A stretch of 61,607 nt of DNA, the filler included, from Bdellovibrionota bacterium (GTDB lineage: Bacteria; Bdellovibrionota; Bdellovibrionia; Bdellovibrionales; JAEYZS01): NCBI GenBank assembly GCA_963169515.1. It is 5 parts of 5 records of this genome, joined end to end, with 100 filler letters (N's around TTAATTAATTAA, not from the genome) between each part and the next. Parts side by side here need not be neighbours in the genome. Positions count along the whole stretch, not along the records: positions 1 to 24,008 come from CAUJEF010000107.1; 4 more parts are not named here. The stretch is one strand, 5' to 3'. Below, piece after piece: positions 7,671 to 16,992 of the stretch. The stretch's first letter is position 1. Each line of letters opens with the position of its first letter. The position numbers and the translations under genes are program-made. The notes under the pieces are model-generated. The model was not told the origin of the DNA and did not search any database. It saw only the letters and a list, made by a program, of their open reading frames with translations.

Positions 7671-7874
7671 TTGAAAAAAACTGACCCGCTATTTGGTATT
7701 TCTAAATCCCGCCTTAACGATATTGAAAAAGGTCGCAAAGTTGTAAGCCCCGAAAGAACTGCCCGCTATGCTACAACTTTGGGTTATTCGGAAGGTCGTT
7801 TTGTTGAATTAGCCCTACAGTCCATTGTCGATCATAGTGGATTGAAATTTAAGGTTGCCGTGAAAGTGGCTTAA
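7671..7874 (+). pseudogene. 5'-truncated XRE/HigA-like HTH antitoxin
   Basis: GISKSRLNDIEKGRKVVSPE is the second half of an XRE HTH; the first helices and an RBS are missing. Confidence 0.6.
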
Positions 7875-8273: not shown

Positions 8274-8590
8274 GTGTATAGGGTTCATCAGCTCAGAGTA
8301 ATTGTCAATGGTGTGGTTTTTAATGAGGTTGTGATTGATACCATTATGAAGAAAAACACAAGGATCACATTAATGATAAAGTTATTCTTGAGCTTGTGAA
8401 AAAACTGAACCACGGAATATTTCTGCCCGAAGTTATTAATGGGTCTGGTGTAAAATTTTTCGTGAACCATCCTTGGTATTACGAAGATAAATCGTATCGC
8501 TTGGTTTGGTTTATTCCACCCGATGAATCCTATCTGGGTGTACGAAACGCTTTTAGACTAAATGTAAGGAGAAGCAAACATGGCAAGTAA
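8274..8590 (+). pseudogene. frameshifted putative toxin of a toxin-XRE antitoxin pair
   Basis: The frame from GTG 8274 (VYRVHQLRVIVNGVVFNEVVID) joins the frame of 8342-8590 (HYEEKHKDHINDKVILELVKKLN...YRLVW...GVRNAFR) if one base is restored at ~8340. Confidence 0.65.
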
Positions 8591-8897
8591 AAAAATTAAA
8601 TGGCCCAGCGATACCGAACTAAAAGCAATGGATAAAAGACTTTCCAAAGCAACGGGCACGGCCGACCTCCCACCAAATGCCGACCTTTTAGATCGTATCA
8701 AATACGCACTTTGTGGCGAATTCATTAAATATTGCCTAGAGCACAAGGTATCGCAAAGAGAGCTTGCCGCCGAACTTGATATCAGCGAATCACGTATCAG
8801 CGAGATTGTGCACTATCGTATTGATAAACTCACCATTGATCGGCTGATCCGGTATCTCGGAAGGCTTAATCCGAAATTAAAGTTTAATGTGGTTTAA
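8580..8897 (+). CDS. XRE-family HTH antitoxin-like regulator
   Basis: VSQRELAAELDISESRISEIVHYRIDKLTIDRL; AGGAG RBS; overlaps the upstream ORF. Confidence 0.85.
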   Translation: MASKKIKWPSDTELKAMDKRLSKATGTADLPPNADLLDRIKYALCGEFIKYCLEHKVSQRELAAELDISESRISEIVHYRIDKLTIDRLIRYLGRLNPKLKFNVV

Positions 8898-8961: not shown

Positions 8962-9038
8962 TGGCCCGTTCGGAGAGACTCGAACTCCCAACCCTCAGAT
9001 CCGAAGTCTGATGCTCTATCCAATTGAGCTACGAACGG
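8962..9038 (-). tRNA. tRNA-Arg, anticodon TCG
   Basis: CCGTTCG acceptor, D arm GCTC/GAGC, anticodon arm TCAGA-CTTCGGA-TCTGA, GTTCGAGTC T loop, encoded CCA; 77 nt. Confidence 0.96.
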
Positions 9039-9043
9039 GTAAT

Positions 9044-9541
9044 TTATTCTCGAATAACATAGTCGCGGGTGAGAGGAAAGTAAAAATCCGCAGCCTCTTG
9101 AACCTCTGGCGAAGTTGATTCGGGCCAAGACCAAATTTCTGTACGACATCCCCGCGATTTCAGATACCAAATGAGCGGCAAATAATCCTTGTCGCCCCCA
9201 ATAATGATTGCAACATCTACTTTTTCCGCAAGTGTAACGGCATCGATAATCAAAAAACTGTCGGCGTTTTTTTGGGGCCTTCGCATCTCAGCTCCAAGGC
9301 TTGCCATAAAATCGTCAAAGCTTTTTGAAATTTCTTTGTAAATAGGCTTATAATACAAAATACGAATGATTTCTCGGTCGCCAACTTGGTTCAGGACCTT
9401 TTTATAGTCCGTGCGCCCCTCGTGATGTTTCAGACCGCTCATTTCAATGTTTTCTGCATCAATGAAAACGGCTACTTTCTGAAACAAAAGGTTTTTTTGA
9501 CGGAGCGAAGCGTGCTCTTTTTTGCCTTCACTTTTTCTCAC
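9044..9541 (-). CDS. NYN domain (LabA/DUF88, PIN-like) protein
   Basis: VFIDAENIE, QKNAD, IDA, GGDKDYLPL, EAADFYFPL. Confidence 0.9.
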   Translation of the reverse strand: MRKSEGKKEHASLRQKNLLFQKVAVFIDAENIEMSGLKHHEGRTDYKKVLNQVGDREIIRILYYKPIYKEISKSFDDFMASLGAEMRRPQKNADSFLIIDAVTLAEKVDVAIIIGGDKDYLPLIWYLKSRGCRTEIWSWPESTSPEVQEAADFYFPLTRDYVIRE

Positions 9542-12463: not shown

Positions 12464-13630
12464 ATGGAACCGCAGTCGGTTTATTTAGATTATAATTCTA
12501 CAACCCCCATTGACCCAGATGTTTTTGAACAGATGCGTCCATTTTTTACAGAACATTTTGGAAATCCTGCAAGTCGCTTGCACTCTTATGGTTGGATCGC
12601 TGACAAGGCCGTTCAGAACGCACGCAAACAGATCGCTACGCTAATCGGTGCCGAAGCCAAAGAAATTATCTTCACAGGGGGCGCGACAGAGAGCAACAAC
12701 CTTGCAATTCGCGGAGTATTTGAGGCCTACGGTTATGAGGGCGCACATATTATTTCGACACAAACCGAGCACAAATCTGTATTGGAAGCTCTCGAATACG
12801 TCGAAAAGCACGGCGCAAAGGTTACCTATATACCTGTAAATTCTTTCGGACAAATCACAGCAGAACAGATTGAAGAGGCTATCACTCCAGATACCATTTT
12901 GGTCAGTGTGATTTATGGTAACAACGAATTTGGCTCGCTCAACCCCATTGAGGAAATCGGCCATATCACGACAAAAAGAGAAATCTTTTTTCACACCGAT
13001 GCCGTTCAGGCCCTTGGCCGGACCGAAATTCATGTTAAAGATCTGAATATCGATCTACTTTCCATGACGGCACATAAACTGTACGGCCCCAAGGGGATCG
13101 GCGCACTTTATGTGCGACACATACCTCGTCGGGTGAAATTAGAGCCTTTGATTGTTGGTGGCGGCCAAGAAAAGGGCCTTCGCGCAGGCACGCTCAACGT
13201 CCCCGGTATTGTCGGATTTGGCAAAGCTTGCGAGGTAGCCACAAGCAACTTCCATGAAGAAAATTTTGCCTTAAATGAATTAAAAAATCTTTTTATAAAA
13301 AATCTTCTGGATATTCCCGGAACGGTCTTAAATGGTCACCCCACCCAAAGGCTGAATAATAATATCAGCGTTCAATTTGGCGGCGTAAAAAATACCGACC
13401 TTATCATCGCATTAAAAAACGTAGCCTGCAGTACGGGATCGGCCTGCAGCAGCGACAGCGCCAAGCCGAGCCACGTTTTGCAAGCGATTGGTTTAAATCC
13501 AGAACAAATTCAATCCACTATTCGTTTTGGAATTGGGCGCTATACCAATATTGAACAAATCGACTATGTCTGCTCTAAAATTAGAACCTATATCGAATCA
13601 GTCCAAAAACCGGAGCTCGAATTTATATGA
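12464..13630 (+). CDS. iscS: cysteine desulfurase (IscS/NifS class)
   Basis: YLDYNSTTP, FGNPAS, TAHKLYGPKG, RAGT, STGSACSS. Confidence 0.95.
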   Translation: MEPQSVYLDYNSTTPIDPDVFEQMRPFFTEHFGNPASRLHSYGWIADKAVQNARKQIATLIGAEAKEIIFTGGATESNNLAIRGVFEAYGYEGAHIISTQTEHKSVLEALEYVEKHGAKVTYIPVNSFGQITAEQIEEAITPDTILVSVIYGNNEFGSLNPIEEIGHITTKREIFFHTDAVQALGRTEIHVKDLNIDLLSMTAHKLYGPKGIGALYVRHIPRRVKLEPLIVGGGQEKGLRAGTLNVPGIVGFGKACEVATSNFHEENFALNELKNLFIKNLLDIPGTVLNGHPTQRLNNNISVQFGGVKNTDLIIALKNVACSTGSACSSDSAKPSHVLQAIGLNPEQIQSTIRFGIGRYTNIEQIDYVCSKIRTYIESVQKPELEFI

Positions 13631-13953
13631 TTTCTATTTCGGATAATGCCATTAAACACATTCAACGCGTGAAGCTCGAAGAGGGAACCAAAACGGACTC
13701 ATTCCTTCGAGTAAATGTGGCAGGCGGCGGCTGTTCTGGTCTGTCTTACAAACTTAAATTCGATCAAGAAGTGAAGCCCGATGACAAGGTATTTGAACAA
13801 AGTGGAGTTAAAATCGTGACCGATCCAAAAAGTTATTTGTATCTGATCGGGATGACTCTTGATTATGAAGGCGGACTAAACGGACAAGGCTTTGTATTTC
13901 AAAATCCCAATGCTAAAAAATCATGCGGTTGCGGATCCTCTTTTTCAGTTTAA
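13627..13953 (+). CDS. iscA: A-type Fe-S carrier (IscA/HesB)
   Basis: GGCSG, NPNAKKSCGCGSSF. Confidence 0.95.
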   Translation: MISISDNAIKHIQRVKLEEGTKTDSFLRVNVAGGGCSGLSYKLKFDQEVKPDDKVFEQSGVKIVTDPKSYLYLIGMTLDYEGGLNGQGFVFQNPNAKKSCGCGSSFSV

Positions 13954-14021
13954 GCTAGCCCCCTATTTAGATGCGATGCGAATAATTGCCACAGAAATTT
14001 ACCAGGTTTAAGATAATGTAA

Positions 14022-14486
14022 ATGGAAACTACCCCTTGGCGTAAGTGTAATGCCTGTAAAAAGCCAATAGGTCTTGGCAGCTTATATTACGTATGCAGCG
14101 TATCTACATGCAACGGCCAGCGGACAGGGTATGCTTTCTGTTCTGTTTCCTGTTTTGATACCCATGTCCCAGTTGCACGCCATAAAGACGCAGCTGCTAT
14201 TGAAATGAAAGCGCCTCTCGTACAACAAGTCATTCGAACTGTTTCCAAACCAGGAACATCGCCTGCGCCAAGATTGTCCAACGAAAACAGAGAGGCTCTC
14301 ATAATTGCTTCACGCTTAAAAGAGTACATAAGCTCACAATCGGATTTCAATACATCCGGCGGGGTGATTGATGTTCTTTCAGATCACATCCGCATTTTAT
14401 GCGAACGTGCAATCGACAATGCCCGTGCTGACGGCCGCAAAACCGTTATGGAGCGCGATTTTCAATTTATCAAAACTCTGAAATAG
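14022..14486 (+). CDS. zinc-finger + histone-fold protein (bacterial ZZ-type histone)
   Basis: N-terminal CxxC..CxxxxC..CxxxC..H..H; C-terminal LIIASRLKEYI..NTS..VIDVLS..AIDNARADGRKTVMERDF histone fold. Confidence 0.85.
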   Translation: METTPWRKCNACKKPIGLGSLYYVCSVSTCNGQRTGYAFCSVSCFDTHVPVARHKDAAAIEMKAPLVQQVIRTVSKPGTSPAPRLSNENREALIIASRLKEYISSQSDFNTSGGVIDVLSDHIRILCERAIDNARADGRKTVMERDFQFIKTLK

Positions 14487-14549
14487 CTACCAAATTTCTT
14501 TTTCGGCTCTTATAGTGGAGCAGCAACCGCTATGGAGTTTGGGGTGCTC

Positions 14550-15551
14550 ATGATAAAAACTATTATTCGATCTTTTGGTTTCAGCGTTCCTGACCGGGTC
14601 GTAACTAATCACGACTTGGAAAAAATGATGGATACTTCAGATGAATGGATACAGCAACGCTGTGGGATCAAAGAGCGCCGTTGGATCACGCCTGGAAAAG
14701 AAACAACTTTGTCATTGGCCGCAGAGGCCAGCCGCGACGCCCTAAAAAAAGCAAATCTCAAACCCGATGACATTGACGCAATTATTTTTGGATGCTTGGT
14801 TTCAGATCATATTTTTCCTGGAACTGGTTGTTTGCTTCAGGAAGCCTTGGGATTTTCAAAAACTATTCCCGCACTAGATATACGAAACCAATGTTCGGCT
14901 TTTTTGTACAGCCTAAGCATCGCCGATGCATGGATCCGTTCCGGCGTTTATCGACGTGTATTGATTGTCGGCTCAGAAATACACTCCACAAGCCTCGACA
15001 AAACTACGCGTGGGCGCGATGTGAGTGTTCTTTTTGGCGATGGGGCCGGAGCATGCATTGTTGAAGCTGGAACCGACAAGAATCAAGGCATAATCGAAGT
15101 TCAAATCGCAAGCGAGGGTAAATATGCTGATAAACTGCGTGTCGCAAAGCCGAGTTCAAATGATGATCCCCGAATAAAATTTGAGCCCGAATTTAATCCA
15201 CATCTGTTTCCATCTATGGATGGAAAATATGTTTTTAAGCACGCGGTGGAACGAATGACCCAATCTTTAACCGAAATCTGTAAGAAAAATAATATTACTG
15301 CTAACGATATTGATTTTGTAATTGCCCATCAAGCAAATGCCCGAATTAATTCTATGGTTCTTCAACAGCTGGGAATTCCAGAAACAAAGACACACAATAC
15401 CCTTCAAAAATACGGAAACACAACCGCCGCAACAATTCCTATTACAATGAGCGAAGCGGTTGATTTAGGGAAAATAAACCGAGGGAACCTCGTAGCCCTC
15501 GTAGCATTTGGGTCTGGCTTCACGTGGGGAAGCGCTTTGCTCCGCTTCTAA
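14550..15551 (+). CDS. fabH: 3-oxoacyl-ACP synthase III
   Basis: DTSDEWI, NQCSAF, LFGDGAGA, HQAN, GNTTAA, FGSGFTWG; start may be 14532 or 14550. Confidence 0.93.
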   Translation: MIKTIIRSFGFSVPDRVVTNHDLEKMMDTSDEWIQQRCGIKERRWITPGKETTLSLAAEASRDALKKANLKPDDIDAIIFGCLVSDHIFPGTGCLLQEALGFSKTIPALDIRNQCSAFLYSLSIADAWIRSGVYRRVLIVGSEIHSTSLDKTTRGRDVSVLFGDGAGACIVEAGTDKNQGIIEVQIASEGKYADKLRVAKPSSNDDPRIKFEPEFNPHLFPSMDGKYVFKHAVERMTQSLTEICKKNNITANDIDFVIAHQANARINSMVLQQLGIPETKTHNTLQKYGNTTAATIPITMSEAVDLGKINRGNLVALVAFGSGFTWGSALLRF

Positions 15552-15590: not shown

Positions 15591-16463
15591 CTAATTGATT
15601 TCTTTTACAATCGCCAATTTCTGTGGTGAAGCTTTAAAGAATGTACTGAGCACATTTATTACTTCGTCCGAACACTCACGCGAAATCAGGTGACCACCGT
15701 GAAGAATACGGGTCAGGTCGCTCTGGGGAAATGTTTTTGCAAGCTGGGTGTACGTATCTTCAGAAAACAGGTTATCACGCCCCCCGTACAAGATATGCAC
15801 AGGTGCCTTAATAAAACCAATCCGCGCCCGCCATACTGACCAATCTTCCGTATCACTAATCCAGGTAAATCTATGAACAACGTGAGTAATCATTTTTATT
15901 TTTTTTGAATTGAGCGCTATCAAACGGTTTTTTCGTGCACGATTTTGCAGCCAACTGACATTAAAAATATTTTGAATGTATGGAAGCGTAAGCTTTCCAA
16001 TTGGTGACATCAATAATAGAGCGAGAGCCGGCGTAATCCGCCCAACTTTAAAAAAGTATTTTAAAAGAGGATTTCTAATATGATCCTGAGGATTCGGGGG
16101 CATTGGACTTAAAAGGGCTGCACGATCCACGAGATCCGGTTCTTCAGACAACAAAGCATACACAAGAGCCGCACCGTAGCTTGCTCCTGCCAGGAATATA
16201 TTATCATTTTTTGATTTTCTAAATATTTGCAAAAATTCTTTTAAAATTGTTACCTGCTGAGAAAATGACATCGGCCGGTTCGGATCTAAAAACAAGCTAG
16301 AAAGATTGGGCGTGATTACGCGGAAATCTTTGGAAAGCGTATCGGAAACAGCGTTCCAATCACTTGTTGATCCGCCATAACCATGAAACAAAATTATAAT
16401 GGGTCCCTCACCAATGTCCCGATAGGATATCGTGTGACTTAAAATTTCAGCCCTCTTCACCAT
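15591..16463 (-). CDS. alpha/beta hydrolase
   Basis: FHGYGG, GASYG nucleophile elbow, D and GGH catalytic positions. Confidence 0.88.
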   Translation of the reverse strand: MVKRAEILSHTISYRDIGEGPIIILFHGYGGSTSDWNAVSDTLSKDFRVITPNLSSLFLDPNRPMSFSQQVTILKEFLQIFRKSKNDNIFLAGASYGAALVYALLSEEPDLVDRAALLSPMPPNPQDHIRNPLLKYFFKVGRITPALALLLMSPIGKLTLPYIQNIFNVSWLQNRARKNRLIALNSKKIKMITHVVHRFTWISDTEDWSVWRARIGFIKAPVHILYGGRDNLFSEDTYTQLAKTFPQSDLTRILHGGHLISRECSDEVINVLSTFFKASPQKLAIVKEIN

Positions 16464-16992
16464 CCTCCTCTTTTACATCATCCACTTTTTGTCGTCGCTT
16501 GATCTTTTCCAGAGCCAATCGTGTTTCTTCAGCCAAAAGCTCACGCTCTGCCCTGTTCAAATCTAAATCGATCTGTTTAATTTGGCCTTTTTGCACATCC
16601 TTAAGTTTTCCTTCTTCCAGGATTATGTTCCCCATAACCGCGCTGGATTCACCTTCTTTTTGCGCCTTTCCACGAGGCCTTTTTGCGATAGATGCGTTTT
16701 CCTTTTCGATTTGATGTGTAAGATCGACAGTGACATCACCAAAGCATTTCAGCTGACACGATAGTCGCCTGCGATCCACATAATACGCTGTTCCTATTAA
16801 ATTTAATTCCTTTTTCGTAGGTGGAAATACGTTATGCTCGCCATCGGCAAGATTTACACGACATTCCGCGCATGATGGAACACCTTTACAAACAGATTGA
16901 ATGTGAATTCCATTTGTATGGGCCAAATCCAAAATACTTTGATTTGGTTTAATTTCTAATTCAATGTTCTGCGGAATAAATTTTACCTTCAT
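16447..16992 (-). CDS. [2Fe-2S] ferredoxin with charged C-terminal extension
   Basis: CKGVPSCAEC...RLSCQ. Confidence 0.88.
   Translation of the reverse strand: MKVKFIPQNIELEIKPNQSILDLAHTNGIHIQSVCKGVPSCAECRVNLADGEHNVFPPTKKELNLIGTAYYVDRRRLSCQLKCFGDVTVDLTHQIEKENASIAKRPRGKAQKEGESSAVMGNIILEEGKLKDVQKGQIKQIDLDLNRAERELLAEETRLALEKIKRRQKVDDVKEEDGEEG

Follow-up and report, generated by a model that had tools for sequence, protein, structure and literature searches.

The 154-aa product of a gene lying between iscA and fabH on contig C107 of this 2.38-Mb Bdellovibrionota genome (positions 1-24008 of the window, that is, of the whole 61,607-nt stretch of DNA analyzed) is, judged by its sequence, a ZZ histone in the sense of Schwab et al. 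(2024). This assignment rests on the metal-ligand pattern, the fold, and 59% identity over 155 aa to a protein of B. bacteriovorus Bd5 (locus L070). The gene is real, and it is a further member of a catalogued family from predatory bacteria. As to what the protein does, we give an even chance to the view that it works as a low-copy accessory chromatin protein, whose histone fold would dimerize and hold DNA weakly while its basic finger would grip a polyanion. Bacterial histones are a young topic, and the literature searched, which consisted mostly of papers outside subscription, yielded no experiments on any ZZ histone.

Architecture and predicted fold

The ORF translated into the same 154 aa that the initial annotation had quoted (Table 1). 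That annotation had read an RKTV and RD histone-fold signature in the C-terminus and a finger of six Cys plus His, followed by a linker, in the N-terminus, and both readings were borne out: R139-K-T-V, R145, and D146 are all present in the histone fold, and six Cys and two His fall within residues 5-65. In a PDB sequence search, residues 90-147 matched the HBb/Bd0055 chains 8cmp and 8fvx (E = 1.7e-11 and 2e-11), in keeping with the closeness to Bd0055 that had been proposed, and weaker matches to Leptospira HLp and archaeal HTkC followed. Among 799 homologue candidates, 790 lay at E ≤ 0.001, well above chance, and the best named genomic relatives belonged mainly to Bdellovibrionales, the others being a few Myxococcota and a single Spirochaetota. 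A Pfam scan of the protein returned no family at cut-off, and its sole NCBIfam match was a sub-threshold one to archaeal histone. An in-frame TTG at residue 85 was considered as an internal second start but gained no support, since inspection by eye showed no clear ribosome-binding site at a normal spacing from it. Three expression runs yielded only short contigs at a depth of 2-5, one of which reaches the first 11 bases of the gene.

Table 1. Positions in the window of the ZZ-histone gene, its domains, its neighbors, and other features.
Feature	Position	Strand	Basis or remark
ZZ-histone gene (P0001), 154 aa	14022-14486	+	ORF translation and homologue search
ZZ-like finger, residues 5-65, net charge +5	14034-14216	+	Homologue alignment, predicted fold
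Variable Pro/Ser/Thr linker, residues 66-90	14217-14291	+	Alignment, AlphaFold2
Bacterial-dimer histone fold with short alpha3, RKTV, and RD clamp, residues 91-147, net charge -2	14292-14462	+	
iscS	12464-13630	+	Upstream neighbor, outside the system
iscA/erpA-type gene	13627-13953	+	Upstream neighbor, outside the system
fabH	14532-15551	+	Downstream neighbor; directly behind iscA in family relatives
Sigma-70-like site, 9/12, ends 7 bases before ATG	13986-14014	+	Promoter scan against shuffles
Small overlapping ORF pair, with 7671-7874	8396-8897	+	
Small overlapping ORF pair, with 8396-8897	7671-7874	+	Second member of the pair weakly HigA-type HTH antitoxin-like, below cut-off
tRNA gene	8965-9038	-	
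NYN-domain gene	9044-9541	-	
2Fe-2S ferredoxin-like gene	16447-16992	-	N-terminal likeness below cut-offs

The finger ligands are C9, C12, C25, C30, C40, C44, H48, and H54, of which seven are invariant in the query and its best 119 aligned homologues (120/120). At the position of the remaining ligand, C40, 110 of these 120 sequences have Cys and 10 have Asp. According to the accessible text of Schwab et al. (2024; PMC11390915), a ZZ histone has a bacterial-dimer-like fold preceded at the N-terminus by a ZZ finger, whose C4 and C2H2 sites are predicted to hold two zinc ions. The query has the same C4 plus C2H2 complement, and by analogy with the published pattern its ligands would sort into two sites, C9/C12/C40/C44 and C25/C30/H48/H54, with two zinc ions predicted to be bound. 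The finger is basic in all 38 aligned members (net charge +3 to +8, mean +5.5); positions 13 and 55 are basic in each of them, with Ser, Asn, or Thr at position 10 and Lys at position 13 in 38/38. By sequence, the finger matched no PDB chain (best E = 1.1) and did not match Pfam ZZ at threshold.

An AlphaFold2 model built on a 68-row alignment (mean pLDDT 76.9, pTM 0.46) showed two separate domains, a small beta/alpha finger and three helices (94-106, 113-136, and 142-152), joined by a floppy linker (pLDDT <50 at 78-94); the helices form a C-terminal bacterial-dimer-like alpha3 fold with RKTxxxD. Searched with the whole model, Foldseek ranked HBb chains and the ZZ entries of p62, HERC2, KCMF1, and BIG highest, with nothing at E ≤ 0.001 (best 0.018) and with probabilities of 0.8-0.99 for the p62 and HERC2 ZZ rows at E > 0.001, and VIA gave Z scores up to 4.6, with histones mixed among ZZ-bearing entries. 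For a separate model of the finger (pLDDT 85.2), the highest VIA score was that of 6tda_L (Z 5.3, with 49 aligned at rmsd 2.3), and Nbr1, the SAGA HAT module, ZZZ3, p62, BIG, HERC2, and CPEB1 reached Z 3.9-4.8; CYLD, a B-box protein, and an archaeal ribosomal protein also scored less than 1 Z unit below 6tda_L. These chains presumably aligned via their ZZ or B-box parts. The scores are modest and those of B-box proteins are close, and both Foldseek and VIA lean toward a ZZ-like fold for the modeled finger, structurally akin to eukaryotic ZZ domains. The ligand pattern, this predicted fold, and the likeness to the Bd5 protein upheld the further suggestion that the architecture is that of Bd3044, the longer histone of B. 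bacteriovorus. According to the accessible text of Hocher et al. (2023; PMC10627809), HD100 carries a pair of histones, HBb and Bd3044, the latter found in 37% of Bdellovibrionota genomes, and the corresponding text of Schwab et al. names an HD100 ZZ histone without a locus tag, from which we infer that Bd3044 is the ZZ histone of B. bacteriovorus.

Charge, DNA contacts, and the proposed role

The linker is 24 aa long in the query and 14-64 aa among fused loci, and basic character is conserved in it at a single site, residue 72 (Arg in 109/120). For the histone fold, we mapped the ten DNA-contact residues of HBb listed in the accessible text of Hu et al. (2024; PMC11317129) through the query-HBb search alignment, and assessed conservation over 113 fused rows. 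Of these contacts in alpha1, L1, and L2, the query keeps seven (S97, K100, N110, S112, K140, T141, and R145), has a conservative replacement at one (K10 by R98), and departs from HBb at two (T8 to A96 and K16 to S104); the retained residues are nearly invariant across the 113 rows. The acids E101, D121, and E144 stand in place of K13, K33, and A56 of HBb, and Asp or Glu occupies these positions in 95, 108, and 103 of the 113 rows. Over the same columns, the net charge is -2 in the query, averages -1.2 in fused folds of the same order (n = 20), and reaches +2.85 in HBb-type singlets (26 distinct of 29). This acidity does not extend to the whole family: the mean charge is +1.9 for fused folds from other orders (n = 13) and, measured on HMM envelopes, +1.7 for the 67 fused cluster representatives.

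From these features, we propose that the histone fold would form a dimer, HBb-type folds being described in the literature as dimerizing and binding the minor-groove backbone. It would likely hold the DNA backbone weakly, because it keeps eight of the ten HBb contacts but is acidic. The finger, tethered to it by the flexible linker and predicted to carry two zinc ions, would likely grip a polyanion, be it DNA, RNA, or an acidic protein patch, since it is basic and lacks the acidic peptide pocket of ZZ domains (see below), although a basic surface does little to establish nucleic-acid binding. An accessory role would fit the distribution: the finger is patchy, occurring in 159 of 301 genomes of the phylum and nearly always once per genome, while a histone fold is present in 71/71 genomes of the order. 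The finger was found in 6 of the 18 genomes of genus g10. The ZZ histone of HD100 shows low expression according to the accessible text of Schwab et al. (2024; PMC11390915). A review states that Bd3044 is essential (PMC11318664), a point on which we do not rely: deletion attempts were found for bd0055 only in the accessible text of the primary study (PMC10627809), and 12 of the 18 g10 genomes gave no match to the finger.

A more specific role, which we regard as a rather doubtful possibility, is that of a variant-histone adaptor whose fold heterodimerizes with the abundant HBb-type histone, thereby spacing fingers in HBb-coated chromatin and loosening or marking it. The genome does hold an HBb-type singlet that is 47% identical to the query fold over 57 aa, the acidic fused fold and basic singlet of this order would suit a mixed dimer, and according to the accessible text of a preprint (bioRxiv 2025.09.24.678257), the two histone genes of B. 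bacteriovorus, HBb and the second one, share their expression maximum at one time point late in growth. However, the two genes are unlinked here (C107 vs C68), a second histone occurs in only 50% of ZZ-histone proteomes (PMC11390915, accessible text), and many genomes of family f15 with both finger and fold give a single match. The singlet, a 64-aa HBb/Bd0055 orthologue (L131:2053-2247, minus strand, G000:C68), lies tail to tail with a gene that by eye resembles NAD-dependent DNA ligase.

Finger-only genes and the reach of the finger

The finger also occurs as a gene of its own. We fetched 66 regions, selected for a short frame or a match confined to the finger and including two contig-break checks, and counted a gene as finger-only where its ORF stops with no histone fold either inside the frame or in the 0.8-2.5 kb retrieved downstream. 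The 66 comprised 46 finger-only, 17 fused, 2 that run off the contig, and 1 without a finger; G137 and G266 (ORF off the contig) and G046 (frameshift) were left out of the finger-only count. The finger-only genes therefore belong to at least 46 of the 159 finger-positive genomes, a lower bound because the fetched regions come from part of these genomes. They are found at loci L031, L033-L043, L045, L046, L048-L050, L198-L223, L225, L226, and L228, in 46 Bdellovibrionota genomes, and take two forms: a finger with at most 11 further residues, and a finger with a charged helix, whose tail of 42-63 residues usually ends near an I/L-R-R motif by eye (the strict I/L-R-R pattern is present in 11/46). 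We did not find such proteins in print; supplements may mention them. The frameshift in G046 (L160, contig G046:C437) falls between finger and fold of a ZZ-histone gene and marks either a pseudogene or an assembly error. One genome, G191 (73% complete), has both a finger-only gene (L215) and a fused ZZ histone (L141), which may be a binning effect.

With a singlet query, a histone fold was detected in 39 of 45 candidate genomes, in most cases on a different contig or at a great distance. In these genomes, which had been picked for finger-only matches, many unlinked singlets are closer to the fused fold than to HBb and have acidic N-terminal tails; stand-alone ZZ-histone-like folds with such tails are seen at L136-L138, L140, L143, L146-L148, L150-L159, and L161. 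The same query found no histone match in any of the six finger-bearing genomes of genus g39 (G004, G013, G022, G077, G151, and G163; completeness 83-98%), and in five of them the histone profile and PF00808 also came back empty, with one partial match (E = 0.087) in a 496-aa frame. In an unrooted tree of 61 columns, built from 35 of the 113 fused and 17 of the 32 HBb-type rows, the HBb-type folds formed one clade (100/97), and the fused folds and ZZ-like singlets were intermingled, with 5-6 label changes. The intermingling indicates that fusion or separation of finger and fold took place repeatedly. The sole recurring partner of the finger that we saw is the histone fold, fused to it in 67 of 150 cluster representatives; the other 83 lack a histone fold, and most of these look like fragments or chimeras with unrelated tails and were not counted. 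A search of longer proteins for other partners gave one match, a ZZ histone with a long linker. Ligands and core of the finger are invariant across fused and unfused cluster representatives.

Finger-only genes fit both a two-part system and a finger with a job of its own. Under the former, the finger would be a self-standing regulator that acts in trans on chromatin by docking on DNA coated with histones, and the window would hold the fused form of a two-part chromatin-reader system. We consider this unlikely; it is a Rosetta stone argument, drawn from the occurrence of the finger as its own gene in dozens of Bdellovibrionota genomes with the ZZ-type histone unlinked. Because of the 46 finger-only loci and the 6/6 g39 genomes in which no histone was matched, the job of the finger need not concern chromatin. 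These two observations, together with the constancy of ligands and core whether or not a fold is attached, are what favors a finger that serves a protein machine or RNA, with the histone fold only dimerizing or localizing it. We regard this as distinctly unlikely, since the fused fold keeps its L1-L2 and alpha1 DNA contacts nearly invariant, which mere dimerization does not need, and since no fusion partner other than the histone fold recurs. Whichever holds, the natural finger-only proteins offer a ready way to examine the finger apart from the histone fold.

The initial annotation also had the finger reading proteins, and eukaryotic ZZ domains read N-terminal tails or N-degrons. To place query positions against p62, we matched the two by motif position, not by structural superposition, using what we take to be the p62 ZZ motif. 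The groove of p62 for N-terminal amines consists of D129, N132, D147, and D149 (PMC6197226, accessible text); matched in this way, the query family lacks acids there, with Ser, Asn, or Thr at finger position 10, Lys at 13, and no conserved acid at 31-39 in the 38 aligned members, and the accessible text of Schwab et al. likewise describes the eukaryotic ZZ pocket as not conserved in ZZ histones (PMC11390915). Despite the similarity in predicted fold to the ZZ domains of p62, HERC2, and ZZZ3, tail reading in the eukaryotic manner is thus very improbable, the acidic pocket being absent. We had considered p62 ZZ as a precedent for RNA binding and dropped it, as the effect of R139/K141 was reinterpreted by its authors as indirect (PMC9014876).

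Genomic neighborhood and relation to known systems

As the initial annotation stated, the gene lies directly behind iscS-iscA; it starts 68 bases behind iscA and ends 45 bases before fabH, and a fur gene lies about 3 kb upstream. A Sigma-70-like site precedes it, which is a weak hint of an own promoter only, because the region holds fewer such sites than its shuffles (3 against 6.3). A metal or Fe-S link had been suggested from this position. We used eleven locus proteins as tblastn queries against homologous loci and found none of the neighbors, iscS, iscA, fabH, fur, and queF included, at 0 of 29 loci with 1.5-kb flanks (the gene's own locus serving as positive control), at 0 of 80 with flanks up to 5 kb (50 of the 80 loci being ≥9 kb), and at 0 of the 46 finger-only loci; because the sets of 29 and 80 partly overlap, and Bdellovibrionales make up most of both, these two counts are not independent. 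The 80 loci had no conserved neighbor of any kind except within clusters of close relatives. Finger-only genes of family f15 have two neighbors in common, which we took as lineage synteny.

Among relatives of the same family, the finger was found in none of six, and iscA in four of the five searched, with fabH directly behind it and no histone between in 4/4, so the family order is iscA-fabH and the histone gene is a passenger here. Unrelated small genes lie just upstream of iscA in three of these four relatives, from which it appears that the spot takes up passengers. At L193, L194, and L196, these are one or two secreted-looking small genes on the opposite strand, situated between iscA and iscS where the locus includes iscS. 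The order iscS-iscA-histone-fabH is therefore private to this genome among the loci examined. Cys-rich fingers can be redox-sensitive, and the gene shares its strand with iscA just upstream and has fur nearby, but an Fe-S or metal/redox sensor co-regulated with iscS-iscA is scarcely probable, given that linkage to these genes is not conserved, that the spot takes up passengers, and that zinc is the metal suggested by a ZZ-like fold with C4 plus C2H2 ligands. The genomic neighborhood says nothing on ZZ-histone function.

Two further features of the window were noted. About 2.5 kb from iscA, a gene with a 2Fe-2S ferredoxin-like N-terminus has a long charged C-terminal extension. A small overlapping ORF pair adjoins a tRNA gene and an NYN-domain gene, and this region looks like a small mobile or toxin-antitoxin patch.

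Among known systems, the eukaryotic ZZ domains of p62, HERC2, ZZZ3, p300, and Nbr1 are similar to the query finger in predicted fold and differ from it in giving no sequence match; the query has FCSxxC as its second knuckle, no acidic amine-binding pocket, and a basic domain. HBb/Bd0055 (8cmp, 8fvx, 9ezz, and 9f0e) is 47% identical to the query over 57 residues, and the RKTV, the RD clamp, and most DNA contacts are kept. It has no finger, is abundant, and is probably essential, whereas the query carries a finger and falls outside the HBb clade, whose folds are about five charges more basic than that of the query. The closest likeness is to the ZZ histones themselves (minor alpha3 histones, for example D0LYE7), which, like the query, combine an N-terminal C4 plus C2H2 finger with a C-terminal bacterial-dimer-like fold. 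Ligand spacing is the same except at the last C4 cysteine (C51/C53 in a figure legend in the accessible text of PMC11390915, C40/C44 in the query). Nothing substantial differs between them; the query has a fairly short linker and its private place between iscA and fabH.
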